Source: Bacillota bacterium (GTDB lineage Bacteria > Bacillota > Limnochordia > Darwinibacteriales > DTU012). From it: DNA of 64,000 bases. Location: positions 4,673 to 68,672 of the forward strand of contig JAAYNP010000006.1 of assembly GCA_012520795.1 (NCBI GenBank), read 5' to 3'. Position numbers and translations under genes: made by a program. The notes beneath the pieces were generated by a model that was not told the DNA's origin, did no database searches, and saw only the letters and a program-made list of their open reading frames with translations. Below, piece by piece: positions 13,224-59,318 of the stretch; the stretch's first letter is position 1, and each line of letters begins with the position of its first letter.

Positions 13224-13421
13224 ATGGTAGGTAAAGTAAAATGGTTCAATGCGGAAAAGGGCTTCGGTTTCATCGAACAGGAAAACGGTGAGGATGTATT
13301 TGTCCATTTCACCGCCATTCAAGGCGATGGATTCCGCACTCTGGAAGAAGGCCAGCAAGTGGAGTTCGAGATTGTGGACGGCAAGCGCGGCCCCCAAGCT
13401 GCCAATGTTGTCCGCCTTTAA
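13224..13421 (+). CDS. cspA: cold-shock protein (CspA family)
   Basis: [16 protein letters not shown] and [11 protein letters not shown] motifs, with a long 5' UTR. Confidence 0.9.
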
Positions 13422-13439
13422 CCGCTGAACAGAACCGAA

Positions 13440-13474
13440 CCCAGCCGCAGTCAATCACTGCGGCTGGGTTTTTT
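13440..13474 (+). terminator. rho-independent terminator after csp
   Basis: Stem cccagccgcag / ctgcggctggg followed by tttttt. Confidence 0.7.
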
Positions 13475-32553: not shown

Positions 32554-32597
32554 ATGTTATATTAGAGGTAATAATTGGGTTGTGGAGGTGTGAACGA

Positions 32598-35111
32598 TTG
32601 AATTTGGAGCAGCTGCGCGAACAGTTTTTGAACCCTGCGGACGAGTTTGGCCCCATTCCGTTTTGGTTTTGGAATGATCATCTGACTGAAGAGGAGATAA
32701 CCAGGCAAATCCAGGATTTTAAAGCCAAAGGCGTTAATGGATTTGTGATTCATCCCCGGATTGGAATCCCCAAAGAAATCGAGTATCTGTCAGACCGGTT
32801 CATGGAATTGGTGGCCTGTGCTGTGGAGGCGGCTGAAAAGTTGGGAATGCAAGTGATCTTGTACGACGAGGGAATGTATCCCTCCGGTTCCGCCCACGGC
32901 AAGGTTGTCGCCTCTAATCCCCGGTTTGCCAGCCGCGGCCTTCAACTGCGGGAGTATGCTGTTTCAGGCCATCTGGAACTTAAGCCTGAGCTGGAACCTG
33001 ATGACCGGTTGGTTTCCATTCAGGCCGCAAAAAAGATTGATGAGAAGGTACTTGATCCAAAAAGCCTGCTGATTTTGACTTTAGAGGAAGACAGAATTGT
33101 GTTTACAGCCCCTGATCAGGAGCAGTGGGTGCTGATGCTGTTTGTGGAAACATATTCCAGAGGCACCATTCGCGGGATTCATTTCGGGGAGGATGACGGC
33201 CAACCGGGAGCGCCTCCCAGTGCAGATCTGCTCAACCCCGAAGCTGTGAAGGCTTTTATTGAGTGCACTCATGAAAGGTATTATCAATACTTAAGCCGGC
33301 ATTTTGGGCACACGGTTATTGCCATGTTCACCGATGAACCAGCGATCCTCGGCCGCCGGGGCAAAAGGGGGCTGAGGCCCTGGACCGATGGATTTTTGGA
33401 GTGGTACCGTAAGTTTGGCGGTAGTGAATTGGATCTGGCAGCACTGTGGTTTGAAGCCGGTGAGGAAACCGGTAAGAAGCGCAGGCTGTACAAGCAGGCA
33501 GTGAATGCACTTCTGGAACAGTCATACTACAGGCAGATTTCTGAGTGGTGCGCCGGGCACAACATTGCCTTAACCGGGCATCCGGAACGGAGTACTGATA
33601 TTGGTGTGCTTAAGCATTTCCAGATTCCCGGCCAAGATGTGGTGTGGCGCTGGGTGGCGCCAGAGAACAATCTTGCGATTACCGGGGAGCACAGCACCAT
33701 GGCAAAGTGTTCATCAGACGCTGCCAGACATGCCGGACTGCGCAGAAACGCCAATGAGTGCTTTGGCTGCTGCGGGCCGGACGGTATTCACTGGGCGTTT
33801 AGTGTCCGGGACATGAAATGGTATATGGACTGGCTGTTCGTGCGAGGTGTAAACCTGTTGTACCCCCATGCCTTCTTTTATTCCATAGACGGCAAGGGCA
33901 GGTATGATGAGCGCCCGCCGGATGTCGGCCCCAATAATATCTGGTGGCCTCACTACCGGGTCATTGCCGATTATATCAAGCGCCTCAGCTGGCTTAATAC
34001 CGACAGTGTCAATCAGGCACAAGTGGCGGTGTTGTGTGAGCCCGATCATTTGCCGTGGCAGATCGTGCAGCCATTGTATGAGCACCAAATTGAGTTCAAT
34101 TATTTGGAGAACCGGCTGTTTGCCGAAAAGGTGAAAGTTGAGGGCGGGAAGCTGGCAATAGCGGCCCAGAAATACTCAGTATTGCTGGTTGAAGACCCTG
34201 TTCAGATTACTCCTGAAGTGGAGAGCGTCTTGACTGATTTTGCAAAGCAGGATGGAGCGGTTCTGATCTTCAATCTGGACCGGCAAAAGCTCCCATGGGA
34301 GTGGGCATGTGAAATCCGCGATTTGGGCCGGCTTGTACCGGAGCTCGAAAAACGGATCAGCCGTGATTTCTGTTTTGAACCAACCTGCAGTCAGCTGCGC
34401 TGTACTCATGTAGTAAAAGACTATTTGCACCTCTATCTCCTGGTTAACGAGGGAGATCAGCCGATTGCCGGTACAGCTGAGATTGATCAACAAGGATGTG
34501 TGGAAGTATGGGATGCCTGGTCTGGTACCACGAAAAAGGCCCCGGTGAAGATAAACTCCAGATCCAAGACATCAATCGATGTTCAGCTTGCCGGGCGGCA
34601 GAGCATGATCATTACGGTCGATCCCCGCAGGGAACCTGCAGTGGAGCAGGAAAGCCCGGCTGCAGCCGGTGCGGGCAAGCCGCGTGCGGTCATCACTGAA
34701 ACCATTACCCTTGATGGTGGGTGGAGGATTGCAGACTCACCGCTGCCCATGGACGTTGGACACCAACTGCGGTCGTGGGTTGAATTTGAGGGCATGGAGA
34801 ACTATTCCGGCACCTTTACGTATCTTAACCAGTTCGATCTTGATCCGAGTAAAGGAGAGTGTCAGCAAATCGTGCTGGATTTGGGCGAGGTATGGGAGCT
34901 TGCCGCTGTTGAGATCAATGGAGCCGATGCGGGAGTGTGTCTGCTGCCGCCTTATCAGTTTGATCTGACTGAATATGTGCAGCCGGGATCGAACCGGGTT
35001 CGAGTCAGTGTTACCAATTCCAGGGCAAATGAGCTGGCCGGTGCCAAAATCACATCCGGCATGCTTGGACCGGTGACAGTACGGGTTGTCAGGCAGGACA
35101 GCCACGGCTGA
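32598..35111 (+). CDS. glycoside hydrolase-like protein (GH106-like alpha-L-rhamnosidase family candidate) with a C-terminal galactose-binding-like domain
   Basis: The N-terminal motif PIPFWFWNDHLTEEEITRQIQDFKAKGVNGFVIHPRIG is characteristic of this glycosyl hydrolase family as I recall it. The C-terminal beta-sandwich resembles the GH2 sugar-binding type. Start TTG 32598 (alternative TTG 32580). Confidence 0.5.
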   Translation: MNLEQLREQFLNPADEFGPIPFWFWNDHLTEEEITRQIQDFKAKGVNGFVIHPRIGIPKEIEYLSDRFMELVACAVEAAEKLGMQVILYDEGMYPSGSAHGKVVASNPRFASRGLQLREYAVSGHLELKPELEPDDRLVSIQAAKKIDEKVLDPKSLLILTLEEDRIVFTAPDQEQWVLMLFVETYSRGTIRGIHFGEDDGQPGAPPSADLLNPEAVKAFIECTHERYYQYLSRHFGHTVIAMFTDEPAILGRRGKRGLRPWTDGFLEWYRKFGGSELDLAALWFEAGEETGKKRRLYKQAVNALLEQSYYRQISEWCAGHNIALTGHPERSTDIGVLKHFQIPGQDVVWRWVAPENNLAITGEHSTMAKCSSDAARHAGLRRNANECFGCCGPDGIHWAFSVRDMKWYMDWLFVRGVNLLYPHAFFYSIDGKGRYDERPPDVGPNNIWWPHYRVIADYIKRLSWLNTDSVNQAQVAVLCEPDHLPWQIVQPLYEHQIEFNYLENRLFAEKVKVEGGKLAIAAQKYSVLLVEDPVQITPEVESVLTDFAKQDGAVLIFNLDRQKLPWEWACEIRDLGRLVPELEKRISRDFCFEPTCSQLRCTHVVKDYLHLYLLVNEGDQPIAGTAEIDQQGCVEVWDAWSGTTKKAPVKINSRSKTSIDVQLAGRQSMIITVDPRREPAVEQESPAAAGAGKPRAVITETITLDGGWRIADSPLPMDVGHQLRSWVEFEGMENYSGTFTYLNQFDLDPSKGECQQIVLDLGEVWELAAVEINGADAGVCLLPPYQFDLTEYVQPGSNRVRVSVTNSRANELAGAKITSGMLGPVTVRVVRQDSHG

Positions 35112-35388
35112 CCCTCTGAAAAAACGATTCCGATTCATTTACAGCCTCGCATTCAGCAAGGCCCTGTGGTATGCTGAAGGCAGGGAGCAGGTCGATAATT
35201 ACTCCCTGGAAAGGAGTGATTCCGTTGATCACAAAGAGGTGGCTTAAAGGGTAGCTTTTAAGCTAACGCAGGTAGCTCTCCCTGGGGGCTGCCTGTGCCG
35301 CGTTCAAGAGGAAACAGCGGAGTTTGACGCAGGATATTTCCCACCTCGGCGTGAATTATTGGATAAAAGCAGCAGAGGTGGTTTTCTA

Positions 35389-36114
35389 GTGAACAGCGGC
35401 TATGAGTATTCAAGGCGTTTTTTGAACGCCTTCATCGGTATTGAACAGGCATTGGAAAAAATTGTGAAAAACAAGCGGCGTGTGCCATTTTATCAGCTGG
35501 TGGACCTGGCAGCCAAGACTGATCCTTTTGTACGGGAGATAGCCATCGAGTTAAAAGAATATGGTGATCTTCGCAATGCTATTGTCCATGAGAGGATAGA
35601 TGATAAACCCATTGCCGAACCCCATCAAGATGTCGTTGAACGTCTGGAGCGGATTCGCGTTCTGATGCATTCGCCACCTACCGTGGAAGAGTCGTTTCTG
35701 GGGCCTGTGATAACCTGCAATCTTGAGGACAGCATAAGTGCTGCTATTACCAAGATGCACGCCAACTCTTTTTCTAAGCTGCCGGTGTACAAAAGCCATC
35801 GGTTTATGGGGATCTTGACAGCAGAGGCTGTCACCTATTGGCTGGCGGATCACCTGACGGCTGAGCTCAATCTGGCCGAGGTCACAGTGGAGGCAGTGCT
35901 TCGTTATCTTCACAACCCGGACAACTACCGTTTCGTGCCTCCAACTTGTTCATTGGTGAAGGTGTTGAAGATCTTCGAGGATTTCAGCCACCGCGGCAAG
36001 AGAATCCAGGCGGTGCTGATCAGCGAGGACGGCACTGAAACCGGGACACTGTTGGGGATCATTACCGTTTTTGACTTACCGAGAATCTACCAGATCTTGG
36101 AGAAAAAGCACTAA
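35389..36114 (+). CDS. CBS domain-containing protein
   Basis: Tandem CBS motifs in the C-terminal half. GTG start after agaggtgg. Confidence 0.6.
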   Translation: MNSGYEYSRRFLNAFIGIEQALEKIVKNKRRVPFYQLVDLAAKTDPFVREIAIELKEYGDLRNAIVHERIDDKPIAEPHQDVVERLERIRVLMHSPPTVEESFLGPVITCNLEDSISAAITKMHANSFSKLPVYKSHRFMGILTAEAVTYWLADHLTAELNLAEVTVEAVLRYLHNPDNYRFVPPTCSLVKVLKIFEDFSHRGKRIQAVLISEDGTETGTLLGIITVFDLPRIYQILEKKH

Positions 36115-36128
36115 AGGCAATACTGGCG

Positions 36129-36986
36129 TCAATGGTGCCCCGCCCCATGCTGTTTACGGTATTCCCGGGGGGATAGGCCGGTGATCCGTTTAAACATTCG
36201 TCCGAAATAGGTTTGACTCTCATAACCCACCATGTCAGCGATCTCCGTGATCGTCAGCCCTTCATCTGCCAGCAGTTTTTTGGCTTCCTGGATTCGGATT
36301 GTATTCAAATATTCGATCAATGTCAGCCCGGTCACCGCCTTAAACATCCGGGAAAGGTAGCATTGGCTGATGTAAAACTGAGCTGCCAATTGCTTAAGAG
36401 AGAACGGCCTTTGGTAATTTGTCCGAAGATACCGGACTATTTTGTGTATTTTTTCATGAACCGGGCTTAAAGGCTCGTAGACGCTGGAATCGGCAGTTCC
36501 GATCCTGGTCGCGACCAATAATAGTTCAATCAGCAGGATTTTCAGGTACAGCTCGGAATTGGGCTGCGGTTTTTGGTATTCAAGGCTCAGCTTTGACAAA
36601 ATGTTTTCAACCACAATCTGATCCGCAAGTTTCAGCCTGACAACCTTCGGTTCGCTGTAAAACCGGTTCATAATCGGATGAGCGACAATATCCGGGATCA
36701 GATCTTCCAGGAACCTGTCTTGGAAATAGACCACAGTACGTTCGTGGTCACGGTTATCCGCAGCGGTAGTCCGGTGCAGGACAAAACTGGGCACAAAGAT
36801 CAAGTCGCCCTGATGGACATGGTAGATGCGGTCGTCAATGAAATAGTAGCGCTGGCCTTTTCTAAGATAGTAGATTTCATGAGGTTTGTGGCTGTGCTTG
36901 TCATCCATGTTAAAAGCACCGCGTATATGGGATTGGATCCGAAACATATAGTTGAATCTGGGAATTGGAATCACCTCCGAATTCAT
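36129..36986 (-). CDS. AraC family transcriptional regulator (cupin sensor plus HTH)
   Basis: C-terminal AraC HTH signature (LKQLAAQFYISQCYLSRMFK; ITEIADMVGYESQTYFGRMFKRITGLSPREYR). Confidence 0.7.
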   Translation of the reverse strand: MNSEVIPIPRFNYMFRIQSHIRGAFNMDDKHSHKPHEIYYLRKGQRYYFIDDRIYHVHQGDLIFVPSFVLHRTTAADNRDHERTVVYFQDRFLEDLIPDIVAHPIMNRFYSEPKVVRLKLADQIVVENILSKLSLEYQKPQPNSELYLKILLIELLLVATRIGTADSSVYEPLSPVHEKIHKIVRYLRTNYQRPFSLKQLAAQFYISQCYLSRMFKAVTGLTLIEYLNTIRIQEAKKLLADEGLTITEIADMVGYESQTYFGRMFKRITGLSPREYRKQHGAGHH

Positions 36987-37120
36987 TATAAATATAATCA
37001 CTTTGGATCGCAAGATAGGTTGAATATCCCACAAATGAGCAAATAAATATTAGATTTATACATAAATTTGCTGTAAAATGGATTTAGCACAAACTAAGAC
37101 AAGGAGGCACTCAGTTCCCG

Positions 37121-38407
37121 ATGAAAAAACACAGGTATGTTCAGGTAGGAACCGGAGGAAGAGCCCGCTTCTTTTATGAAGCCCTGGTATCGACATACAA
37201 GGATACCAGTGAGTTGGTTGCTTTTTGTGACATAAACCCGGCACGGCTCGAGCATGCGGTCAATGCCTTAAAGGAAAAGCATGGTTATGGACCCGTCCGC
37301 ACCTATTTGGCACATGAGTTTGATCAAATGATCGAAACAGAAAGGCCCGATACAGTTATTGTGACATCGGTTGACCGGACCCATCACAAGTACATCTGCC
37401 GGGCTATGGAGCTTGGCTGTGACGTGATAACCGAGAAGCCCATGACAGTGGATGCAGACAAGTGCCAGCAGATTTTGGACACGATCAAAAAAACAGGGCG
37501 CAAACTGCGGGTTACCTTCAATTACCGTTATTCTCCTTACAATACGAAAATCCGGGAGCTGATTGCCAATGGAACAATTGGAGACGTAACCTCAGTGCAT
37601 TTTGAGTGGCTGCTCAACACTCTCCACGGTGCTGACTATTTCCGCAGATGGCACAGGGACAAACGCAACAGCGGCGGATTGCTGGTCCATAAGGCAACCC
37701 ACCATTTTGACCTGGTCAATTTCTGGATCGGCAGTCAGCCTGAAACAGTGTTTGCCATGGGTGACCTCTTGTTCTATGGGCGGGAAAATGCCGAAAACCG
37801 CGGTGTGACAAAATTCTACTACCGCGGCACCGGTTCTGAAAATGCCAAAGACGATCCATTTGCCTTGGATTTGTCCAAAAACCCGTCCTTGGCCAAGCTG
37901 TACCTGGAAGCCGAGCAATATGACGGCTATCTCCGGGACCAAAGCGTATTTGGCGACGGTATCAGCATCGAAGACACCATGGGAGTGCTTGTTCGCTACA
38001 AGAACAAGGCCATTCTTACTTACTCGCTCAATGCCTACATGCCGTGGGAAGGTTACCGTGTGGCTTGCAACGGCACTAAAGGCCGGATTCAGGTTGATAT
38101 TGGTGAAAAAAGCTATATCAATGCCGGTGGGGACCAGGATATGGAAGGCACTGTGGCTATAAAGCGGATTGTTGTTTACCCAATGTTCGGAGAGCGCTAT
38201 GAAGTGCCGGTTGAAGAGGCTCCGGGTGGGCACGGCGGCGGTGATCCCCGCATGCTCGAGGATATCTTTGGTGAGCCAGAGCACGATCCTTACAACCGTG
38301 CCGCATCCCACGTCGATGGCGCCATGTCAATTCTCGTGGGTATAGCCGGCAACAAGTCAATTGCAACAGGCCTTCCTGTAAGAATTGCAGATTTGGTCCA
38401 GTTCTAA
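37121..38407 (+). CDS. Gfo/Idh/MocA family oxidoreductase
   Basis: N-terminal Rossmann motif VQVGTGGRARFF and the family C-terminal domain. Confidence 0.75.
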   Translation: MKKHRYVQVGTGGRARFFYEALVSTYKDTSELVAFCDINPARLEHAVNALKEKHGYGPVRTYLAHEFDQMIETERPDTVIVTSVDRTHHKYICRAMELGCDVITEKPMTVDADKCQQILDTIKKTGRKLRVTFNYRYSPYNTKIRELIANGTIGDVTSVHFEWLLNTLHGADYFRRWHRDKRNSGGLLVHKATHHFDLVNFWIGSQPETVFAMGDLLFYGRENAENRGVTKFYYRGTGSENAKDDPFALDLSKNPSLAKLYLEAEQYDGYLRDQSVFGDGISIEDTMGVLVRYKNKAILTYSLNAYMPWEGYRVACNGTKGRIQVDIGEKSYINAGGDQDMEGTVAIKRIVVYPMFGERYEVPVEEAPGGHGGGDPRMLEDIFGEPEHDPYNRAASHVDGAMSILVGIAGNKSIATGLPVRIADLVQF

Positions 38408-39228: not shown

Positions 39229-40899
39229 ATGAGTGAATATGGAGATTTGAACTTGAGGCCGGCTCACTTCATTGATAAAATCATCGCCGATGATGTAGCC
39301 GGCGGCCTTGAACAGGTGGTGACCCGGTTTCCGCCTGAGCCAAATGGGCTGCTGCATATCGGCAGCGCTTATGCCATAAATATAAGCTATTCCATGGCCA
39401 AGAAATACAGCGGCAGGTTTAACCTTCGTTTTGACGATACCAATCCAGTCAAGGAAGATATTTCCTATGTCAACGCAATTATCGAGGATATAGACTGGTT
39501 GGGTGTGAACTACGGCGGCACGCCTCTGTATGGATCCGACTACTTTGAACAGATGTATGAATATGCCGTGCATTTGATCAAGAAAGGTAAAGCCTATGTT
39601 TGTGATCTCAGCCAGGATGAGATCAGGGAGTACCGGGGCACCTTGACGGAGCCGGGCAGGGAAAGCCCTTACCGGAGCCGGCCCATTGAGGAAAACCTGA
39701 GGCTGTTTGAGCAGATGTGGGAGGGAAGGTTTGAGGAAGGAGCAAAAGTGCTCCGGGCCAAAATTGACATGGCCAGCCCCAATATCGTTCTGAGAGATCC
39801 CGTGCTGTACCGCATCATTTACAGCGAACACTACAGGACAGGGGACAAGTGGTGCATTTATCCTATGTATGACTATGCTCACCCCATTCAGGACTACATA
39901 GAAGGGATCACCCATTCACTCTGTTCCAACGAGTTTGTCAATAACCGTGCCCTCTATGACTGGGTCTTGGAGAATCTGGACCTGCCTGGACGCCTGCCCC
40001 AGCAGATTGAGTTCGGCAGGCTGAATATCAGCGGTGTGGTAACCAGCAAACGCTACTTGAAGCAGCTGGTTGACAGCGGCTATCTGGAGGGATGGGATGA
40101 TCCGCGCCTCCCTACCCTGCAGGGGCTGCGCCGCCGCGGTTACACCAGAGAAGCAATTTTTGCCTTTTTGAATGAAATTGGGGTTCCGAAGACCGAAACC
40201 ACAGTGGATGTAGAAATGCTCGAGCATTTTGTCCGCCAGGATCTGATGGAGAAAGCTGTATGCTTGATGGCAGTCTTGGATCCTGTTAAGGTGGTAATCA
40301 CCAATTTCGAACCCGGCCGGGTTGAGTACCTGGACGCCGACAACAACTACAAGACTACAGCTTTGGGTATACGCCGGGTGCCGCTGACACGGGAAATCTA
40401 TATCGAACGGGAAGATTTTATGGAAGATCCACCCAAGGGATACAACCGGCTGACCATCGGCCGCGAAGTAAGGCTCAAGCATGGCTATTTCCTCAAATGC
40501 AATGATGTGGTCAAAGATGAACAGGGCAATATTCTAGAGCTTCATTGTACCTATGATCCTGAAACCAAGAGCGGCTCCGGTTTTGCCGGGCGGAAAGTGA
40601 AGGGCACAATCCACTGGGTCAGCGCATCCCATGGCCTGAAATGCGCGGTCCGGCATTACGAGCCTTTGTTTTTGAACCCACCCGATGAGGAATCGCTGTT
40701 AGAGGCGATCAACCCCAATTCACGCCGGGACTTGACAGAATGCATAATCGAGAGTTCTATCCTGGATTTCATTGACCAAGGAATGACCCATTACCAATTT
40801 CTGCGCAACGGGTTCTATGTCCTGGACAATAAGCTGGGTTCGAAATCCGATTTGGTTTTTAACCGTATTGTACCGTTAAAGAGTTCTTTCCGGCTGTAG
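39229..40899 (+). CDS. glnS: glutamine--tRNA ligase
   Basis: Class I HIGS motif (PNGLLHIGSAY), VVTSKR (KMSKS-like), and a C-terminal anticodon-binding beta-barrel region. Confidence 0.85.
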   Translation: MSEYGDLNLRPAHFIDKIIADDVAGGLEQVVTRFPPEPNGLLHIGSAYAINISYSMAKKYSGRFNLRFDDTNPVKEDISYVNAIIEDIDWLGVNYGGTPLYGSDYFEQMYEYAVHLIKKGKAYVCDLSQDEIREYRGTLTEPGRESPYRSRPIEENLRLFEQMWEGRFEEGAKVLRAKIDMASPNIVLRDPVLYRIIYSEHYRTGDKWCIYPMYDYAHPIQDYIEGITHSLCSNEFVNNRALYDWVLENLDLPGRLPQQIEFGRLNISGVVTSKRYLKQLVDSGYLEGWDDPRLPTLQGLRRRGYTREAIFAFLNEIGVPKTETTVDVEMLEHFVRQDLMEKAVCLMAVLDPVKVVITNFEPGRVEYLDADNNYKTTALGIRRVPLTREIYIEREDFMEDPPKGYNRLTIGREVRLKHGYFLKCNDVVKDEQGNILELHCTYDPETKSGSGFAGRKVKGTIHWVSASHGLKCAVRHYEPLFLNPPDEESLLEAINPNSRRDLTECIIESSILDFIDQGMTHYQFLRNGFYVLDNKLGSKSDLVFNRIVPLKSSFRL

Positions 40900-40923: not shown

Positions 40924-40974
40924 AGGAAAAGTGCAGTTAAATAAAGGAGCTGCCCTTTTCCTGTTTCTTTTTTG
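40924..40974 (+). terminator. rho-independent terminator after glnS
   Basis: 14-bp stem caggaaaagtgcag / ctgcccttttcctg with one mismatch, followed by tttcttttttg. Confidence 0.65.
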
Positions 40975-41064
40975 CCGCTTTGGATTTCTGGATTACGGCA
41001 GGAGAAAGATGCCAAAACATGAATTATGATGATAGGGATGCTAGGATGAAAGGTGGAGATTTGA

Positions 41065-43653
41065 GTGTTTCAGTGGCCAAGAAGACAGTTGTCTGTTGTG
41101 ATTGCCGTACTTTTGTGCAGCCTATGGATGGGCACGGCTGTTTTTGGGCAGAATCTCAGCGTTGACCAGTGGGTAAACCTATTGGGTACTGAGAATCAAC
41201 AGGCGTTTGATTACTTTGTTGGCTTAGGGCCCGATGCCGTACCAATTTTGCAGCAGGCAATGGAGACCAAGTGGATGTTTCATGCTTACATACCGCAGCG
41301 CCACCAAGTGGTCAAGGTGATGGCGGCGATCGATGATCGGTCAACCCTACCTGTCCTGAAGATGGCCTTAACGTATGAATCGGCAATCCGGGAGACCGCA
41401 ATCGATGCAGTGCTGGCCATTCCCGGGCTTACCATAGGCGAATTGTTTGCTGAACTGCTTACGGAACAGGTTGACTATCAGACAGCTCAGCTGGAAATCC
41501 TATGCAAGCTCTATCATGACAGGCAGGATGTGGTGCCGGTGCTGGATGAAATGTTTGAGTTCTTGGCCTCATCCAGCCTCGATGCGGGCACTATCGACAA
41601 AGCGGCAGATTTGATTGCCCGTTTTGTCATTGATGACAAGGTTGTGACATCCACACCCCAACCGCTAACGCGGGAGATGATTCTCAAAGCATTAATGGAA
41701 CAACAGCAGGCCAAGGAAAAAGCAGAAGAGAAACCGGAGCCTGTCGATATCAACCCTGCGATTTTTGATTTCTTGACAGAACAATTGGACCATGCCGACA
41801 CAGGCAACCGAGTACTGGCTCTGCGGACCATTGGGCGGTTGGCTGATTTGGTGCGGGGACTGGATCTTAACCAAGAGATTGATCTGACAAGTTTCGTGCA
41901 GCATTTACTGCCCATTTTGGGTGTACCGGGTACGGACATGCGGTGCAGAATTCTTGCTGCAAAGGCTCTGGAACTGATCACCCCCCATGATCAGGTGGTA
42001 TTGGCGGCTTTTACGGAAGTGTTGCTGGCCCCGGGCTTGGATCAGGAGATTTATTGGGCGGCAGTTCGAGCCCTTGAAAATGCCGGAACAAGAGGAGCAG
42101 GATATCTGGGAGACATTTTGGATCAGATTTACACGATGGAGCCGGCCATGCGGTGGCGGTTGGCCGGTGCATATGCGCTCTGTGCCAATACTGATCCTAA
42201 GCTGATCGATAAGTTTGCAGCATTGATCAGCTCTGGTGACCCTGATCTGGCTTTGTATGCAGTCCGGGTTCTGACTGCGGTGGGGCCGCAGGCAGAACCA
42301 GTTGTGCCTGCGTTGTTGGATCAGCTGGCAAGCGAACCGGAACCCGAGTTTGAGCTGGCGGTCAAAGCGGCACTGCTCCGGATAGCGCCGGATCAAGACC
42401 AGGTTCGGCAATTTGCAGGGGAAATACCGGCCCAGTCGGCTCCTACCAAGGCGGTGGCCGCCTTTCCCGGTGCAGAAGGGAGAGGTATGCTGGCTTCCGG
42501 CGGCCGCGGCGGCGATGTTTATATAGTGACCAACATCAAAGATCGGGGAGCAGGATCCTTGCGGGAGGCTGTCAGCAAGCCTAACAGGACAGTTGTATTC
42601 GCTGTTTCAGGGACCATTGAACTCGAGTCTCAGTTGAGGACCGCAGCAAATATAACGATCGCCGGCCAGACAGCCACCGGTGACGGGATTACGGTAGGAG
42701 ATTATCCGACTTTGATCGGAGGGAGCAATTCGATTGTTCGGTACATTCGGTTCAGATTAGGTGACAGGCGGGGCTTGACCAGCTCCGATGCTTTGAACAT
42801 CGATCGAAACATCAGCAATGTAATACTTGACCACTGTTCTGTCAGCTGGGGTACAGATGAAGTGTTTTCCTCTTATGACAATTCCAATATAACAGTTCAG
42901 TACTGTTTGTTCGGCGAGGGGCTGAACTGGCTCAATCATTCTGCCGTAGGGTTGTGGGGGCCGCGGGCTACCTACCACCATAATCTGATCTATTCCAACA
43001 AAACCCGCCATCCCAAGCTGGCTTACCTCGGCGACATTGTCGACTTTAACAACAACGTGATCTATAACTGGAGAGAGCGAAACGTATATACCGGCTCCCA
43101 AGGCAGGATCAACTTCATCGGCAATTACTTCAGGCCAGGCCCTGAGACACAATCCCATCGGGGGACGCTGGTTCTGCCTGAAGGTGACGATGTGCGGATC
43201 TACATCACCGGCAATGTCATGGAGGGCAATCCCACAGTCACTGACGACAACTGGCGCGGAGTCACAGGCTCAGCCCGGAGAATGGATCAACCGTATGCAT
43301 CCTCGCCTATGACCATCCATTCTGCCGAAGAAGCGTTCCAGATCGTGCTGGAACATGCCGGTGCCAGTTTGCCCAGGCGTGATGCTGTTGACGCCCGGGT
43401 GATCAGTGATGTGATTAATGGAACCGGTAAAGTAATCTTGCGCCAGAGTGAAGTCGGCGGATACCCGATAATGAACTCGGTGTTGGCACCGGTTGACACT
43501 GACTGGGATGGGATGCCTGACATGTGGGAGATATACAACGGCCTGGATCCGTACGATCCTGAAGACCGGAATCTTGACCGGGATGATGACGGGTACACAA
43601 ACTTGGAGGAGTACTTGAACGCTATTGTAGCTGGTCATCCATTGGGGGAATAA
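41065..43653 (+). CDS. secreted multidomain protein: PBS-lyase HEAT-like repeats plus a PL1-type pectate lyase beta-helix plus C-terminal acidic Ca-binding-like repeats
   Basis: Signal peptide. HEAT repeats (RVLALRTIGRLADL, RCRILAAKALELI, WAAVRALENAG, ALYAVRVLTAVG). PL1 motifs GRGGDVYIVTNIKDRGAGSLREAV, NVILDHCSVSWGTDEV and TRHPKLAYLGDIVDFNNNVIYNW. C-terminal DTDWDGMPDMWE...DRDDDGYTNLEEY. Confidence 0.65.
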   Translation: MFQWPRRQLSVVIAVLLCSLWMGTAVFGQNLSVDQWVNLLGTENQQAFDYFVGLGPDAVPILQQAMETKWMFHAYIPQRHQVVKVMAAIDDRSTLPVLKMALTYESAIRETAIDAVLAIPGLTIGELFAELLTEQVDYQTAQLEILCKLYHDRQDVVPVLDEMFEFLASSSLDAGTIDKAADLIARFVIDDKVVTSTPQPLTREMILKALMEQQQAKEKAEEKPEPVDINPAIFDFLTEQLDHADTGNRVLALRTIGRLADLVRGLDLNQEIDLTSFVQHLLPILGVPGTDMRCRILAAKALELITPHDQVVLAAFTEVLLAPGLDQEIYWAAVRALENAGTRGAGYLGDILDQIYTMEPAMRWRLAGAYALCANTDPKLIDKFAALISSGDPDLALYAVRVLTAVGPQAEPVVPALLDQLASEPEPEFELAVKAALLRIAPDQDQVRQFAGEIPAQSAPTKAVAAFPGAEGRGMLASGGRGGDVYIVTNIKDRGAGSLREAVSKPNRTVVFAVSGTIELESQLRTAANITIAGQTATGDGITVGDYPTLIGGSNSIVRYIRFRLGDRRGLTSSDALNIDRNISNVILDHCSVSWGTDEVFSSYDNSNITVQYCLFGEGLNWLNHSAVGLWGPRATYHHNLIYSNKTRHPKLAYLGDIVDFNNNVIYNWRERNVYTGSQGRINFIGNYFRPGPETQSHRGTLVLPEGDDVRIYITGNVMEGNPTVTDDNWRGVTGSARRMDQPYASSPMTIHSAEEAFQIVLEHAGASLPRRDAVDARVISDVINGTGKVILRQSEVGGYPIMNSVLAPVDTDWDGMPDMWEIYNGLDPYDPEDRNLDRDDDGYTNLEEYLNAIVAGHPLGE

Positions 43654-43709: not shown

Positions 43710-44168
43710 TCACTTTACGGCGGCTTTTTCCAGTTCCAAAAGGAAGCGTTTGACAGTTAAGCCGTAGGCGAAGCCGCCCATGCCTTTTGCGGCCACAGCC
43801 CTGTGGCAGGGAATTACAATCAACAGTGGGTTGGCGCCGACGGCACTGCCTACAGCCCGGTAGCCTTTAGTCTCAAGCTGATCACCGATTTGCTTGTAGG
43901 TGGTTGTACACCCGTATGGGATTTTCTTCAGCACCTGCCAAACACGATTTTGGAAGGGAGTTCCGTCCAACCTCAGCGGCCAGGCAAATCGAACAGGCAC
44001 TCCGCCAAAGTAGCGATCGAAGTCTGCTGCAAATTCCCGAGGTAAGGCAGGGTATGCTTCGCGGCAATCACCCCCATTTGGTTTTGACAGCCAGATCTTG
44101 GTAAAGTACCCGCTCTTCATAGACAGCAAGATAGTCCCAATCGGTGAAGGGTATTGATATACTCCCAT
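43710..44168 (-). CDS. ogt: methylated-DNA--protein-cysteine methyltransferase
   Basis: PCHRAV active-site motif and a C-terminal HTH. RBS aaggag upstream of ATG 44168. Confidence 0.75.
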   Translation of the reverse strand: MGVYQYPSPIGTILLSMKSGYFTKIWLSKPNGGDCREAYPALPREFAADFDRYFGGVPVRFAWPLRLDGTPFQNRVWQVLKKIPYGCTTTYKQIGDQLETKGYRAVGSAVGANPLLIVIPCHRAVAAKGMGGFAYGLTVKRFLLELEKAAVK

Positions 44169-44236
44169 ACATACTCTCCTTACTGATACAGCGATGTTTC
44201 CTGCCGTATGCTGCCTGCTTTGCAGAAAGCTCTTTG

Positions 44237-45349
44237 TCAAGCCTGCTTGATGATGGCCGCAACCAGCTCCGCCGCCTTCGCCAAATCGGCAATCGCCACG
44301 GATTCGCGGGTACTGTGGGCGTCTTTGTAGTTCAAGCCCAAAACTACCGAGGGAAGGCTTTTGCTGTTGAGAATGCTGGCGTCGCTGCCCCCTCCGGTTC
44401 CCTTGATCTGCGGTGCAACCCCGATAGCTTCGCAGGCTTTGACTGCAAGCTGAATCACAGGATGCGATTCGGGAATTGTGAAAGCGGAATAGCAGTCAGT
44501 CATCTGCAGATCAAGCTTAGTACCAAATCTGGCGGCGCTGTTTCTGGCGGCGGTAATCATCTTTTCTGCCTGGGCTATCAGTTTGTCTGGGCTCAGGGAG
44601 CGGACTTCACATTTTACGGTACAAACCTCCGGTACAATGTTGGTGGCCACGCCGCCCTGGACCACCCCTACGTTGGATGTGGTTTCGTGATCAATTCGGC
44701 CAATATCCATGGACGCGATGGCTTCAGCCGCGATTTTGATTGCATTAATTCCCAACTCTGGACTGACACCGGCATGGGCTGCTTTGCCATAAAATGTAAA
44801 ATCAAGGTTTTGGTGGGAAGGAGCCCGGTTGATAATTGCGCCTACTTCATCATTGCTGTCCAGGAAATAGGCAAAATCTGCTTTCAGCTGTGACCGGTCC
44901 AGAGCCTTGGCGCCATACAGGCCTCCTTCTTCAGCAATGGTAAATACCAGTTCAAGGCTGCCGTGGGGGATCTCTGCTTCCTGCACTACCCGCACCGCTT
45001 CAAGGATGGCGGCAATGCCTGCCGCGTCATCCGCTCCGAGGATGGTTGAGCCGTCACTTTTGATAGTCCCGTCCTCAATAACCGGCTTAATCCCTTTGCC
45101 CGGTGCAACACGATCCATGTGAGCAGAGAACATGATGGTGGGTTTATCTGATTGGCCCGGCATTCTGGCGATGATGTTCCCGGCGTTTCCACCAATCGTT
45201 TTCCCAGCATCATCTTCCATTACGTTCAAGCCAAGCCTGGTGAGCTGCCTGCGCAGATAGTCAGCTACATCCCGTTCCTCGCCGGCAAAACTGTCGATCT
45301 GCACCAATGTTAAGAATTCGTCTACCAGTCTTTCTTGGTTAATCGGCAT
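44237..45349 (-). CDS. M20/M25/M40 family metallo-hydrolase (peptidase T-like)
   Basis: Motifs HMDRV, GADDAAGIAA and EEGGLYGA. RBS aggagg. Confidence 0.75.
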   Translation of the reverse strand: MPINQERLVDEFLTLVQIDSFAGEERDVADYLRRQLTRLGLNVMEDDAGKTIGGNAGNIIARMPGQSDKPTIMFSAHMDRVAPGKGIKPVIEDGTIKSDGSTILGADDAAGIAAILEAVRVVQEAEIPHGSLELVFTIAEEGGLYGAKALDRSQLKADFAYFLDSNDEVGAIINRAPSHQNLDFTFYGKAAHAGVSPELGINAIKIAAEAIASMDIGRIDHETTSNVGVVQGGVATNIVPEVCTVKCEVRSLSPDKLIAQAEKMITAARNSAARFGTKLDLQMTDCYSAFTIPESHPVIQLAVKACEAIGVAPQIKGTGGGSDASILNSKSLPSVVLGLNYKDAHSTRESVAIADLAKAAELVAAIIKQA

Positions 45350-54370: not shown

Positions 54371-55696
54371 ATGGTGAACTTAAAGAACTTTAGAGGTGGC
54401 GTGCATCCGGAATACAACAAGCACATCACCAGCGACAAACCGATCAAGGTTTTACCAGCGCCAAAAGAGGTAGTGATTCCACTTGCCCAACATGCCGGCG
54501 CTCCAGCTGAACCGCTCGTGAAAAAGGGTGACTCAGTCCTACTGGGCCAGGAAATAGGCAGTTCGGCCGAGCCTATCTCTGCTGCTGTACATACATCCGT
54601 TTCCGGGACTGTGCTGGCAGTGGAGCCAAGGCCGTCTATTAATGGGCGGGAAGTACTGTCCGTGGTCATTGAAAATGATGGGCAGGATGCCAAGGCCCCA
54701 ATGACCGGGCACGACGATCCGATCCAACTACCCAGAGAAGAAATTAGAAAGAGGATAGAGGCTGCCGGGATAGTAGGTCTGGGTGGTGCGGCTTTTCCCA
54801 CCGCGGCCAAATTGAGTCCGCCCCGGGGTTGCAAAATAGAGTACCTGCTGATCAACGGCAGCGAGTGTGAACCGTACCTGACTGCCGATCAAAAACTAAT
54901 GGAAGAATACACAGAAGATGTGGTTTTAGGAGCCAAGCTGCTGGCAAAGGCATGCGGCGCCGAAAAAACAATCATTGCCATTGAAGCCAACAAACCGGAG
55001 GCGCTGCGGAAAATGAAGGCACTGGCTGGATCAAATGCCATTGAGGTCGTGGCTCTGGCAGTCAAATATCCGGCTGGTGGTGAAAAACAGCTTATTAAGG
55101 CAGTGCTTAACCGGGAAGTTCCAGCGCATGGCTTACCGGCACAGTGCGGAGCCCTTGTTCATAACGTAGGGACTGCCTGGGCTGCGGCCAAAGCGTGCAG
55201 GCATGGGCAACCTCTGATTGAGCGGGTGATTACAGTTACCGGTGATGGAGTCAAAGCACCCGCCAATTACCTCGTGCGAATAGGAACACCGTTTAGGGAT
55301 ATAATTGCTGCGGCAGGCGGTTTTGCCGGCGAACCGGGGAAAGTGATTGCCGGCGGCCCTATGATGGGTTTGGCCCAGTTCGATCTCAATGTGCCCATAG
55401 TCAAAGGTGTGTCTGGAATTCTGGTCCTTTCGGACAAGGTTGCCAACGAATTTGATCCCATGCCTTGCATCAAATGTGCGCGCTGTGTCGATGTATGCCC
55501 GGTCTATTTGATGCCGGTCACAATTGAGAAGTATGCAATGAACGCCATGTGGGACGAGGCTGAAGACTATGGTGCCATGGATTGCATTGAGTGTGGATGC
55601 TGCACTTATATCTGTCCTTCGAAGCGCGCCCTGTTGAGTTGGATCAGACTGGCAAAAACTGAGATTGTGGAAGCGCACAGTCGCCATAGTAGCTAA
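54371..55696 (+). CDS. rnfC: electron transport complex subunit RnfC
   Basis: NADH-binding domain plus two CxxCxxCxxxCP ferredoxin motifs near the C-terminus. Confidence 0.85.
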   Translation: MVNLKNFRGGVHPEYNKHITSDKPIKVLPAPKEVVIPLAQHAGAPAEPLVKKGDSVLLGQEIGSSAEPISAAVHTSVSGTVLAVEPRPSINGREVLSVVIENDGQDAKAPMTGHDDPIQLPREEIRKRIEAAGIVGLGGAAFPTAAKLSPPRGCKIEYLLINGSECEPYLTADQKLMEEYTEDVVLGAKLLAKACGAEKTIIAIEANKPEALRKMKALAGSNAIEVVALAVKYPAGGEKQLIKAVLNREVPAHGLPAQCGALVHNVGTAWAAAKACRHGQPLIERVITVTGDGVKAPANYLVRIGTPFRDIIAAAGGFAGEPGKVIAGGPMMGLAQFDLNVPIVKGVSGILVLSDKVANEFDPMPCIKCARCVDVCPVYLMPVTIEKYAMNAMWDEAEDYGAMDCIECGCCTYICPSKRALLSWIRLAKTEIVEAHSRHSS

Positions 55697-55714
55697 TAGT
55701 TAGGAGGATCGACA

Positions 55715-56629
55715 GTGGAAGATTCACGCTTAGTGCTTTCGCCCTCACCGCATGTGCGCGATGAGGACACGACGCAGAAGATTATGCTGACTGTTGTAGC
55801 GGCGTTGATACCGGTATGGGCTGCTGCAACTTATTTCTTTGGGTTCAACAGCATCCGCTTGGTGTTTGTAAGTATCATAGCTGCGGTTGGATCTGAAGCA
55901 GTATTTTTGGCCCTCAGGCGCAAGCCGGTTACCGTATGGGACGGCAGCGCATTAGTAACGGGAATGCTGTTGGGGTTGAGTTTACCCCCAACACTGCCGA
56001 CATGGATGGCTGTTCTGGGTTCGTTTGTTGCGATCGTAATCGGCAAACAGGTTTTCGGGGGGCTTGGCGCCAACCCTTTTAATCCGGCTTTGGTGGGCCG
56101 GGCTGTCTTGGCAGCTTCGTTCACTTCACAGATGACTGCCTGGACCATGCCGTTTACGGATGCGGTTACGAGCGCCACGCCACTGGTGAGCGGACAAGCA
56201 TCGTACGCCGAATTGTTTTTCGGTACTGTGCCCGGCTCTTTGGGTGAGACTTCGGCGCTTGCCATTCTCTTAGGCGGAGTGCTCCTGTTTTACAGGGGGA
56301 TTTTGGATTACCGTATCCCAGTTGGTTTTATCGGTACAACCGCCATTTTATCTTTCGTTTTTGGACAAGACGTGGTTTACCAGCTGCTCAGCGGCAGCCT
56401 TCTGTTTGGGGCCGTCTTCATGGCTACCGATATGGTTACATCACCGATAACTCCCGTGGGGCGGTGGGTTTTTGGGGTTGGCTGCGGCTTGGTTTTGGTT
56501 GTAATCAGGTTCTGGGGCAGTTTGCCTGAAGGGTTGACCTACAGCATCCTGGTGATGAATGCATTTACACCGTTGATCAATCGCTGGACACGTCCCCGGA
56601 TTTATGGCCAGGTGGTGAAGCAGGTATGA
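55715..56629 (+). CDS. rnfD: electron transport complex subunit RnfD
   Basis: Polytopic membrane protein of the NqrB/RnfD family. GTG start after aggagg. Confidence 0.85.
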   Translation: MEDSRLVLSPSPHVRDEDTTQKIMLTVVAALIPVWAAATYFFGFNSIRLVFVSIIAAVGSEAVFLALRRKPVTVWDGSALVTGMLLGLSLPPTLPTWMAVLGSFVAIVIGKQVFGGLGANPFNPALVGRAVLAASFTSQMTAWTMPFTDAVTSATPLVSGQASYAELFFGTVPGSLGETSALAILLGGVLLFYRGILDYRIPVGFIGTTAILSFVFGQDVVYQLLSGSLLFGAVFMATDMVTSPITPVGRWVFGVGCGLVLVVIRFWGSLPEGLTYSILVMNAFTPLINRWTRPRIYGQVVKQV

Positions 56630-57231
56630 AGGAATCAGTCAGGATGGTCGTAGTTTTAACTGTGATTGCCATGGCTTCAGGGTTCATATTGGCACAGGTC
56701 TATCATTGGACTTATCCCACAATTCAACGCAATAGGGCACAAGCACTGGCCGGGAGTATTCTGGCAGTCTTGCCGGGTGCTGTCGAATTCAACGTAATTG
56801 AGGCGCATCCAGCAGGCGGCTTGGAAGATGATCCGACCACGCTGAGAAGCAAACCCGGCAGCGACAGTGATCCGCTGCTGTTGTACCAAGGGCTGGATGG
56901 AAACGGTAATCCTGTCGGTTTTGCGTTTGTCAGCGAGGGTGCAGGATACGGCGGGATTGTCAAGATCATGGTTGGGGTCGGTCAAACTGATCGATTGATT
57001 TCCGGTGTGGCAATCCTGGAGCATGCGGAAACACCAAATCTGGGCAGTAAGATCGAAGACGAAAGCTTCCGCAGCCAATTTGTGGGCAAAGGAATAGATG
57101 ATCCCATTGCCCTTGGGCAGGACATAGATAAGATTAGCGGCGCCACGGTATCTTCAAGAGCTGTGGCTGAGGCTGTCAGCCGGGATCTTGGCAGTGCTCT
57201 GCAAGCCTACAAGGAGGCGGCTAACCAATGA
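56626..57231 (+). CDS. rnfG: electron transport complex subunit RnfG
   Basis: FMN-attachment motif SGATVSS. Its start overlaps the rnfD stop. Confidence 0.85.
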   Translation: MKESVRMVVVLTVIAMASGFILAQVYHWTYPTIQRNRAQALAGSILAVLPGAVEFNVIEAHPAGGLEDDPTTLRSKPGSDSDPLLLYQGLDGNGNPVGFAFVSEGAGYGGIVKIMVGVGQTDRLISGVAILEHAETPNLGSKIEDESFRSQFVGKGIDDPIALGQDIDKISGATVSSRAVAEAVSRDLGSALQAYKEAANQ

Positions 57232-57860
57232 ATAAGATGATCAAAGACTTCTTAAGGGGTCTGTGGGATGAACACCCAACTTTCCGGATTATGATCGGTA
57301 TGTGCCCGACCTTGGCTGTGACTACGGCTGCCATCAATGGGTTCGGGATGGCTGTTGCCACTACTTTTGTCCTGGTCTGTTCAAGCATACTGATCAGCGT
57401 ACTGAAGAAAGTGATTCCCGGGGGAGTTAGAATCCCTGCTTATATCATTGTCATTGCGACCTTTGTTACAACCGTCGATTATATCATGCAGGCTTTTACG
57501 CCAGATCTCCACGAGTCACTGGGAGTATTTATTCCACTGATTGTAGTCAACTGTATTATATTGGGGCGAGCTGAAGCCTACGCGTCCAAAATGCCAGTTG
57601 TCTGGTCCGCATTTGATGCATTAGGGATGGGGTTAGGTTTCACCTGGGGATTGACTTTGATTGGTTCGATCAGGGAGTTGTTGGGCTCGGGAACTGTTTT
57701 TGGCTTTTCAATAATGCCTGATGGCTTTACACCGATTGCGATCTTGACCTCACCGCCTGGTGCATTCATAACACTCGGTGTTTTACTGGCATTGATGAAC
57801 GTTGTCAGCAGTAAAATATCTGAAAAAATCAAGGCCAAGCAACAAAGGGCTGCCAACTAG
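57228..57860 (+). CDS. rnfE: electron transport complex subunit RnfE
   Basis: NqrD/RnfE family membrane protein. Its start overlaps the rnfG stop. Confidence 0.85.
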   Translation: MNKMIKDFLRGLWDEHPTFRIMIGMCPTLAVTTAAINGFGMAVATTFVLVCSSILISVLKKVIPGGVRIPAYIIVIATFVTTVDYIMQAFTPDLHESLGVFIPLIVVNCIILGRAEAYASKMPVVWSAFDALGMGLGFTWGLTLIGSIRELLGSGTVFGFSIMPDGFTPIAILTSPPGAFITLGVLLALMNVVSSKISEKIKAKQQRAAN

Positions 57861-57872
57861 GGGGAGAACAGC

Positions 57873-58445
57873 GTGGAGTACTTGTTATTGTTTATTGGTA
57901 CTGTGATTGTCAATAATTTTGTGCTGGTACAGTTTTTGGGCATCTGTCCATTTATAGGGGTTTCCAAGCAGGTTTCAACCTCGATCGGCATGGGCATTGC
58001 GACCACCTTTGTCATGGTCATGGCTGCCCTGGCGTCCTGGCTGATTCAGCATTTCATACTAGTACCCTTAGGTTTGGAATATTTGCAGACATTGTCGTTC
58101 ATCCTGGTGATAGCAGCTTTAGTGCAGCTTGTTGAGATGTTTTTGCACAAGTCCATCCCCGGGCTGTACCGGGCTATGGGCATTTTCCTCCCCTTGATTA
58201 CGACCAATTGTGCTGTTTTGGGTTTGGCATTGAATGCTGTATTGCGCGATTACAATCTTGGTGAATCATTAGTCTATGGCTTTGGCGCTGGAGTCGGGTT
58301 TACATTGGCTCTAATCATGATAGCTGGAATCCGGGAAGAACTTGAATTTGCCGATATCCCGAAGCCTTTGAAGGGAGCAGCGATTGCCCTGATTACAGCC
58401 GGGTTGTTGTCGTTGGCTTTTAGTGGGTTTGCAGGAATGATCTAG
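57873..58445 (+). CDS. rnfA: electron transport complex subunit RnfA
   Basis: NqrE/RnfA family. VNNFVL motif. Confidence 0.85.
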
Positions 58446-58459
58446 GAATTGGATAAGGA

Positions 58460-59299
58460 GTGAAGGCATTGTATAATTCCCTTGTCGCATTAGCAAGCAT
58501 GGGTGGATTAGGGATTATTCTATCGGTTGGGCTTGTAATCGCCGCCAAGAAATTTTCGGTGGAAGTTGACGAGCGAATCGAAGAAATAGAGATTGCTCTG
58601 CCTGGCGTCAACTGCGGGGCGTGCGGGTTTGCCGGATGCCGCAGTTTGGCGGAAGCGATCGCCGAAGGCAAAGCGCCGATTAACGGCTGTCCAGTGGGCG
58701 GAATTGCTGTTGCTGAAAAAATCGCCGAGATCATGGGTGCTGACAGTGGAAACGCGCCTGAACGCAAAGTAGCCCAAGTTCTCTGTAGAGGTGGCTGTGC
58801 AGAAGCGGCACAGCGGGCAGAATATGATGGGCCTAACGACTGCCGGATTATGAATACAACCCAAGGCGGCGACAAAGGCTGCACATATGGCTGCCTTGGC
58901 GGAGGTACTTGTGTTGAGGTTTGCCCGTTTAATGCCATGTATATGGATGAGAACGGATTGCCGGTTGTGATTGAGGAGAAATGCACCGGGTGCGGCAAAT
59001 GTGTGGAAGCATGCCCTCGGGATATTATTATCCTTACCGGTGAGGAATATGGGGTCCATATCCGCTGCCGTTCATTAGCCCCAGGCAAGGAAGTGCGCCA
59101 AGTCTGTAAGGTAGGCTGCATTGCATGCCGGCGTTGTGAAAAGGAATGCCCTTGCGATGCAATTACTGTGACCAACAACCTTGCGGAAATCGACTATGAT
59201 AAGTGCACGGTTTGCCGCCGCTGTGTGGCAGTATGCCCAGTGCACACTATCGAAGAACAAGACGGGAAGCCAGAGATCAAAGCCAAGAAGGCCGGATAG
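58460..59299 (+). CDS. rnfB: electron transport complex subunit RnfB
   Basis: N-terminal TM helix followed by multiple 4Fe-4S cysteine clusters. Confidence 0.85.
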   Translation: MKALYNSLVALASMGGLGIILSVGLVIAAKKFSVEVDERIEEIEIALPGVNCGACGFAGCRSLAEAIAEGKAPINGCPVGGIAVAEKIAEIMGADSGNAPERKVAQVLCRGGCAEAAQRAEYDGPNDCRIMNTTQGGDKGCTYGCLGGGTCVEVCPFNAMYMDENGLPVVIEEKCTGCGKCVEACPRDIIILTGEEYGVHIRCRSLAPGKEVRQVCKVGCIACRRCEKECPCDAITVTNNLAEIDYDKCTVCRRCVAVCPVHTIEEQDGKPEIKAKKAG

Positions 59300-59318
59300 G
59301 AGTTTGAGGGATAATCCC

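Follow-up and report, generated by a model that had tools for sequence, protein, structure and literature searches.

We report that a stretch of 64,000 nucleotides from a Bacillota bacterium (assembly GCA_012520795.1, contig JAAYNP010000006.1, positions 4,673 to 68,672 of the forward strand; hereafter the window) encodes a polysaccharide lyase of family 1 (PL1) fused to a HEAT-type alpha-solenoid. The gene is a single open reading frame (ORF) of 862 amino acids with a GTG start at 41065-43653 (+), exactly as given in a preliminary description of this DNA. Its C-terminal half is a PL1 lyase that retains the catalytic arginine, and its N-terminal ~420 residues are a HEAT-type alpha-solenoid, the first half of it (half A) by model. 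We propose, with somewhat better than even confidence, that the product is a Sec-exported galacturonan lyase of the PL1 subfamily 2 (PL1_2) type, carrying a non-catalytic accessory solenoid that probably acts as an adaptor or tether. The parts of the gene are listed below; pLDDT is the predicted local distance difference test score of AlphaFold2 (AF2), and 9buj is the PDB entry of the lyase PfPL1.

41051-41058, + strand: Shine-Dalgarno-like AGGTGGAG, 6 nt 5' of the GTG, read directly from the sequence
41065-41148, + strand: putative Sec-type signal peptide, aa 1-28, MFQWPRRQLSVVIAVLLCSLWMGTAVFG followed by Q (inspection and conservation)
41149-41649, + strand: half A of the N-terminal domain, aa 29-195, predicted helical solenoid with the clade-specific KW.FHAYIPQR (AF2, Foldseek)
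41650-41748, + strand: charged Q/E/K-rich connector, aa 196-228 (alignment; block-mean pLDDT 54-62)
41749-42399, + strand: half B of the N-terminal domain, aa 229-445, about six PBS-type HEAT-like repeats (HEAT_2 and alphaRep matches)
42400-42459, + strand: interdomain linker, aa 446-465 (pLDDT <50 in both AF2 models)
42460-43269, + strand: parallel beta-helix catalytic core of the PL1 subfamily-2 type, aa 466-735 (phmmer, profile, AF2, Foldseek)
43006-43008, + strand: codon of Arg648, predicted Bronsted base of the R-x-P motif (aligned to R220 of 9buj chain A)
43270-43494, + strand: C-terminal helical adornment of the PL1_2 module, aa 736-810 (profile alignment to about 317-430 of 9buj; helices with pLDDT >95)
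43495-43614, + strand: two acidic Ca-binding-type loops, DTDWDGMPDMWE (811-822) and DRDDDGYTNLEEY (838-850) (alignment, conservation)

The lyase was recognised both by sequence and by fold. A single-sequence phmmer search of the PDB returned PfPL1 (9buj) at E 2e-44 and the Vi-antigen lyase VexL at E 6e-12. A lyase profile built from 58 diverse relatives matched 9buj at E 1e-104, covering chain residues 23-449, and also matched VexL, Jun a 1, pectin lyases A and B, PelC and PelE; its matches to the PL1 structures 9buj, 6fi2, 1pxz, 1qcx, 3zsc, 7bbv, 1idj, 1vbl, 1air and 1pcl ranged from E 1e-104 to 3e-4. Modelling of the lyase alone from the 58-sequence alignment gave a confident beta-helix of stacked beta-strands (pLDDT 94.6, predicted TM score 0.92), which Foldseek superposed on 9buj with TM scores of 0.81 and 0.78 at 28% identity over the whole module; ranks 2-26 were all PL1 or pectate-lyase structures. 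The module starts at AFPGAEG, which in most homologues lies about 6-66 residues behind the signal peptide. These results bear out the PL1-type lyase domain of the preliminary description, all of whose cited motifs (GRGGDVYIVTNIKDRGAGSLREAV, ILDHCSVSWGTDEV, TRHPKLAYLGDIVDFNNNVIYNW, DTDWDGMPDMWE and DRDDDGYTNLEEY) were found where it had placed them.

The catalytic residues are retained. ILDHCSVSWGTDEV is the xDH motif (D589/H590), and TRHPKLAYLGDIVDFNNNVIYNW holds R648, P650 and N663/N664; R648, D589, H590 and N664 were invariant in 58 of 58 diverse modules, and P650 was present in 57 of them. In both the phmmer and the profile alignments R648 aligns with R220 of 9buj chain A, and Arg220 is the proton-abstracting residue of PfPL1 (PMC11229556). 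Neither loss of the catalytic base nor a lack of PL matches was found. The PfPL1 paper names a second active-site Arg, 'Arg235' (PMC11229556); chain position 235 of 9buj is not an Arg in our alignments, and we claim no counterpart for it. Position 651, a Lys here and an Arg in PfPL1 at +3, varies across the family (R in 33, K in 11 and A in 5), and was not treated as critical for that reason.

PL1 subfamily 2 takes in PfPL1, PelZ and BT4115/4116/4119, and PfPL1 is active on pectin and apiogalacturonan (PMC11229556). Of the structures in the PDB, 9buj was by far the best match, and the best NCBIfam match was PelZ (NF041900), again a PL1_2 protein. Judged from sequence, the closest characterised relatives and the C-terminal adornment place the lyase with this subfamily, of which the catalytic module is a new but otherwise ordinary member. 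Like the PfPL1 of Pseudoalteromonas fuliginea PS47 (PL1_2; PMC11229556), it joins a beta-helix to a C-terminal helical adornment and has the catalytic Arg in an S/T-R-x-P motif, the xDH motif and the C-terminal DxDxDGxxDxW loop. PfPL1 differs in being a single-module enzyme (signal peptide and lyase, without HEAT), in having its gene in a pectin-utilisation locus, the host being a marine gammaproteobacterium, and in ending about 9 residues past the aligned region, without the second loop and helix DRDDDGYTNLEEYLN. PelZ of Dickeya dadantii is of the same PL1 subfamily (PMC11229556), but lacks HEAT. VexL of Achromobacter denitrificans (6fi2, PL1_13) shares the PL1 beta-helix and the same R-x-P motif, but is a weaker match (87 bits, TM 0.50), has a capsule substrate, and carries neither the PL1_2 adornment nor HEAT. 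Modular PL1_2 lyases (P0013-P0120, with Ig, FN3, carbohydrate-binding module (CBM), pectinesterase or type IX secretion system (T9SS) domains) have the same catalytic module, including its acidic C-terminal loops, whereas their Pfam-recognised accessory modules are beta-rich or catalytic and mostly C-terminal.

The acidic tail had been likened to thrombospondin type 3 (TSP3) or dockerin calcium-binding repeats. The acidic loops are present, but they constitute neither a dockerin nor a separate TSP3 repeat domain. Dockerin (PF00404) was matched in none of the Pfam scans, including one of the tail alone at E<=10, and with the loops integral to the lyase fold a dockerin or cellulosome reading was rejected. 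TSP3_bac (PF18884) reached 9.5 bits against a cutoff of 25 (E 1.2); an independent TSP3 appendage was likewise discarded, the score being sub-threshold and the loop aligning into the C-terminus of PfPL1. The tail consists of one canonical and one degenerate loop rather than an array, and its TSP3 likeness is at the level of motif. In PfPL1 the C-terminal helical adornment (~125 aa) ends in a Ca2+-binding pseudo-EF-hand (PMC11229556). Loop 1 (D811-W821) was aligned by profile to the C-terminal DKNKDGINDRW of PfPL1, its mapping to the published Ca site being by C-terminal position and not by coordinates. Among the 58 modules D811 was conserved in all 58, D815 and G816 each in 57, and W821 in 53, with D819 also invariant or nearly so; loop 2 is conserved over GYTNLExY but variable in its acidic part. 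A DxDxDGxxDxWE motif lies 216-277 residues past xDH in 64 of the 120 homologues listed, whether the module ends there or continues into Ig, FN3, CBM or T9SS domains. In the lyase-only model the tail lies within the catalytic module at pLDDT 96-98. Because of the PfPL1 alignment, this near-invariance whatever the flanking domains, and the model confidence, we regard the tail as integral to the PL1_2 module and probably stabilised by Ca. Since PfPL1 stops just past loop 1, the second loop and helix would be an extra common to the wider group. In annotation, the DxDxDGxxDxWE...GYTNLExY segment is best assigned to the catalytic module and not to a dockerin or TSP3 domain. A phmmer search of the PDB with the C-terminal 132 aa returned designed Kelch (SAKe) proteins through a chance DG.PD...DPE, together with weak EF-hand and lanmodulin matches; both were set aside as uninformative, the question having been resolved by the family profile.

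The chosen GTG start is consistent with the N-termini of 11 homologues in the alignment. The features of the N-terminus, judged by inspection and by their conservation, point to export through the Sec pathway: a basic n-region (R6R7), an 11-residue hydrophobic core (residues 8-18, Kyte-Doolittle window mean <=2.84), and a predicted cleavage site V-F-G/Q with small residues at -3 and -1, after which Q29 (+1) is invariant in 12 of 12 full-length homologues. Cleavage behind MFQWPRRQLSVVIAVLLCSLWMGTAVFG would give a mature N-terminus of QNLSV, and no canonical lipobox was seen on inspection of the signal peptide. The protein had been described as exported, with which these conserved features agree.

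The N-terminal domain had been described as about 420 residues of HEAT-like repeats. Pfam HEAT_2 (PF13646) scored 30.5 bits with the whole protein and 35.0 bits with the N-terminal domain alone, against a gathering threshold of 27.7, whereas HEAT_PBS (PF03130) stayed below threshold (12.1 bits vs 20.9, E 0.32). Support for the PBS type comes from alphaRep matches and weak CpcF/NblB matches; a profile of the domain matched alphaRep designed proteins in the PDB with E down to 7e-12 over profile positions 278-445. We take alphaRep proteins to be consensus-designed HEAT-like repeats. The AF2 model from a 12-sequence alignment contained 23 helices over residues 33-448, with block-mean pLDDT mostly 80-93, and Foldseek matched it at probability 1.00 to importin-alpha, beta-catenin, karyopherin-beta2 and the PP2A core enzyme, with a designed repeat protein also among the matches. 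The HEAT assignment thus holds, while the PBS type is recognisable by sequence only at positions about 275-450; residues 29-270 are predicted to be solenoid from the fold model only. Half B carries the repeat motifs R..LAA.ALE, AAVRALE.AG and MRWRLA, and the Q/E/K-rich connector before it is mostly deleted in the homologue P0012. The same full-length AF2 run left the lyase half collapsed (pLDDT 22-60), and for this reason holds no interdomain information.

The domain is strongly acidic (pI 4.45; 62 D+E against 32 K+R; net charge about -30). In repeat consensus and spacing its residues ~275-445 resemble PBS-lyase-type HEAT proteins (CpcE/F, NblB, alphaRep), but it differs from them in its predicted export, its fusion to a carbohydrate-active enzyme (CAZyme) and its strong acidity; the natural proteins among them are known as bilin lyases or adaptors of the cytoplasm. 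No family was matched by the first ~240 residues of the domain. Across 12 clusters the domain is 40-62% identical to that of the window protein, whereas the lyase half is 65-89% identical in sequenced loci, the N-terminal domain evolving faster.

The fusion of a HEAT scaffold to a polysaccharide lyase is real, conserved and rare. The full architecture was found in 12 clusters only, among 5.8 billion; homologues at 50-75% identity keep the whole layout, and the fusion goes well past anything expected by chance. The identical protein has 12 member sequences, lies on 8 contigs, and is annotated as hypothetical in a 'Bacillota bacterium' metagenome-assembled genome (MAG), GCA_030054815.1. The N-terminal domain is carried by 3 of 185,579 species-representative genomes, all of them uncultured Clostridia or Bacillota MAGs. 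An exhaustive hidden Markov model search with this domain, covering 1.84 billion representative proteins, gave 871 proteins at E<=1e-10, and nearly all of the 150 listed match half B only. Among the matches listed, half A was found only in the same clade and its fragments, and the full-length domain only in that clade (P0007 and fragments), in P0122, and in the stand-alone proteins P0123 and P0141. P0122 (L012 1157-4108, 983 aa, GCA_048625135.1), which is built of a signal peptide, a CBM96-like domain, HEAT and PL1_2, is the only more distant relative with both HEAT and lyase parts among these matches. Eight further PL1_2 proteins whose N-terminal regions are long or unannotated were checked and gave no HEAT match; whatever Pfam recognised there was a weak Ig-like or beta-sandwich match.

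In the more distant sister genomes a stand-alone HEAT paralogue of ~395-400 aa with its own signal peptide lies directly 3' of the fusion gene (L005/L006, L011 and L013/L014), and is followed by a DJ-1/PfpI gene and an ODP flavoprotein gene. Its positions are as follows.

L005, 10498-11795: stand-alone HEAT paralogue, split into ORFs of 161 aa and 275 aa, which suggests a frameshift or an assembly error
L011, 2596-3798: stand-alone HEAT paralogue
L013, 542-1729: stand-alone HEAT paralogue

These stand-alone copies with signal peptides, together with the CBM96-HEAT-PL1 relative, establish that the HEAT module is autonomous. The solenoid is a genuine, conserved and autonomous module, presumably extracytoplasmic.

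From this material we infer a substrate, roles for Ca2+, a localisation and a function of the solenoid. The right-handed parallel beta-helix (aa ~466-862) would most likely cleave alpha-1,4-linked galacturonan by beta-elimination, with pectate, pectin or decorated homogalacturonan as candidate substrates. In this reaction Arg648 would abstract the C5 proton, and the conserved acidic D575, D589 and D598/E599 would help to place the substrate, possibly via Ca2+. The C-terminal DxDxDG loop would bind a structural Ca2+ and thereby fix the helical adornment to the beta-helix. The ~420-aa acidic solenoid, joined through a flexible ~20-aa linker, would be a non-catalytic accessory module, at best guess a protein-binding adaptor for tethering or organising the enzyme outside the cytoplasm; the stand-alone secreted paralogues of the sister genomes possibly take part in the tethering. 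Docking or tethering is favoured because HEAT repeats are classically protein-binding, because free secreted copies adjoin the fusion gene, and because the domain is acidic.

Several results weigh against this proposal. For the lyase, Pfam Pec_lyase_C/Pectate_lyase_4 (PF00544) gave no match at E<=1 with the whole protein or at E<=10 with the lyase segment. The relatives checked score 17-22 bits with this model, below its threshold of 24, and we read the miss as low sensitivity of the model for subfamily 2 and not as evidence against PL1. The PelZ match is partial (109 bits, E 2e-31, best stretch at model positions 22-170 only), lies far below the equivalog cutoff of 840 bits, and does not make the protein a PelZ orthologue. 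The second-best structural relative, VexL, degrades bacterial capsule and not pectin. The gene lies outside any polysaccharide-utilisation cluster, and its direct neighbours are housekeeping genes. For the adaptor, neither a partner nor a cohesin, an SLH domain or a sortase signal turned up; a net charge near -30 speaks against simple electrostatic attachment to pectate or an anionic wall, and lends the adaptor no positive support. No paralogue of the N-terminal domain lies within the 64 kb of the window, whose clade is without the adjacent stand-alone copy. If the host is a diderm, 'exported' might mean periplasmic.

The solenoid might instead be a new alpha-helical CBM that targets the lyase to a pectic polysaccharide, perhaps with Ca2+ bridging galacturonate and the acidic surface of the solenoid. 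Classical CBMs or Ig/FN3 domains occupy the corresponding position in other PL1_2 relatives (CBM6-type heads in P0060 and P0066-72). CBM96 and HEAT occur together in P0122, the closest outgroup, and the invariant residues of the HEAT domain include aromatic and basic ones (W70, Y75, R79, Y138, W364 and R365). Most of the invariant residues of half B, however, belong to the structural PBS-type HEAT consensus (R..AA.AL) and not to a binding site, the ligand would be a polyanion and the domain is itself acidic, and P0122 still needs a separate CBM. To our knowledge the described CBM families are overwhelmingly beta-sandwiches, with no HEAT solenoid among them. We regard a direct pectin-binding module as improbable, and as less likely than a protein-binding adaptor.

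A slimmer chance attaches to a VexL-like role in which the lyase trims or degrades an acidic bacterial exopolysaccharide or capsule, either its own or a neighbour's, while the HEAT domain docks to the envelope or to a secretion machine. Helical-repeat scaffolds do hold exopolysaccharide-modifying enzymes, as in PelB-PelA and PgaA-PgaB, VexL is the second-best match in sequence and fold, the gene has housekeeping genes around it in a conserved order and is not part of an operon for sugar use, and TolC-like genes of the window hint at a periplasm. Set against this, PfPL1 is a far stronger match than VexL (354 vs 87 bits, TM 0.81 vs 0.50), PelZ is the best NCBIfam match, glycoside hydrolases or sugar ABC transporters occur near the gene in the window and in relatives, and no exopolysaccharide biosynthesis genes were seen in the flanks.

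Slightly less probable again is an intramolecular inhibitor or pro-domain, the acidic domain mimicking a polyanion in the basic substrate groove until it is released, or the linker cleaved, after export. The net charge of the domain would suit such a role, as would a disordered ~20-aa linker directly before the AFPGAEG start of the mature-type lyase. It is at odds with the stand-alone secreted paralogues, which have no lyase to inhibit, and with a length of 420 aa, unusually great for a pro-peptide; neither a protease site nor a partner could be discerned, and the full-length model offers no usable interdomain information. That the fusion is an assembly or annotation artefact, a pseudogene or a decaying gene, as its origin in a MAG might suggest, can be dismissed, with the identical ORF on 8 independent contigs from different samples, 11 further clusters (50-75% identity) showing one uninterrupted ORF with the same order of parts, and both halves under evident purifying selection.

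The preferred reading, an exported lyase with a solenoid adaptor, concerns an architecture that is undescribed as far as our searches reach. A literature search for HEAT repeat with pectate lyase returned incidental co-mentions only, and an exported HEAT solenoid on a polysaccharide lyase was not found; the preliminary description had called such a fusion unusual. PL1_2 is described as the largest PL1 subfamily, although few of its members have been characterised and one structure is available (PMC11229556). Polysaccharide lyases commonly carry additional modules, and the fusion is confined to a tiny uncultured lineage; should the solenoid serve only as a passive spacer or to stabilise the enzyme, the gene would simply add one to the modular pectate lyases. 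If it tethers or targets the enzyme, it would be a new module type among extracellular biomass-degrading enzymes, and would offer a way into the question of how pectin is attacked by these uncultured Clostridia. A bolder version, which we consider rather unlikely, is that the exported acidic HEAT solenoid represents a previously unrecognised type of non-catalytic module of extracytoplasmic CAZymes, whose fused and free copies could pair as a cohesin/dockerin-independent envelope tether in uncultured digester Clostridia, or which could be the first alpha-solenoid pectin-binding module.

The gene lies between housekeeping genes, with carbohydrate genes further upstream, where a GH106-like hydrolase and a Gfo/Idh/AraC module had been noted and were confirmed at 32580-38404.

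32580-35108: GH106-like protein (843 aa; 49.5 bits vs cutoff 29)
36129-37034, - strand: AraC-type regulator
37121-38404: Gfo/Idh/MocA oxidoreductase
39229-40899: glutaminyl-tRNA synthetase (glnS), the immediate upstream neighbour
43710-44240, - strand: O6-methylguanine methyltransferase domain protein, the immediate downstream neighbour

The order GlnRS then HEAT-PL1 is kept down to 59% identity, and in the clade of the window the methyltransferase gene occupies the place of the stand-alone paralogue. A scan for promoters and terminators gave counts not above those of shuffled sequence; a possible long-loop hairpin with a T-run after glnS, at about 40933-40975, was noticed only by eye, and we make no claim for it. 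Carbohydrate genes are near but not tightly linked, namely GH106-like and AraC genes in the window and a GH43 gene in L005; in L008 an ABC sugar-binding protein and permeases follow the HEAT-PL1 gene, and in L012 a GH2 gene follows that of P0122. The block of GH106-like protein, CBS-domain protein, AraC (-) and Gfo/Idh/MocA (32580-38404) is syntenic with L005, where GH43 is added, and could form a small module for the use of rhamnose or pectin side chains.

Further observations concern the host. Two adjacent ORFs at 435-1457 and 1460-2758 (+) match Pfam OEP (TolC-like) at ~50 bits each, and a homologue search with the TolC-like protein found two relatives only; the host may be a diderm Firmicute. 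At 13128-13471 (+) Rfam reports a cspA thermoregulator (87 bits vs a gathering threshold of 78), most likely reflecting conservation of csp mRNA and coding sequence, because the region holds the gene of a 65-aa cold-shock protein (13224-13421). The AS-prefixed MAG naming presumably marks an anaerobic-digester origin of these genomes. The region 54371-60323 has an RnfC-like gene (54371-55693) at one end and a gene for an ApbE flavin transferase (59181-60323) at the other, with a series of short ORFs in between; it resembles an operon for an Rnf complex, as would suit an anaerobe.

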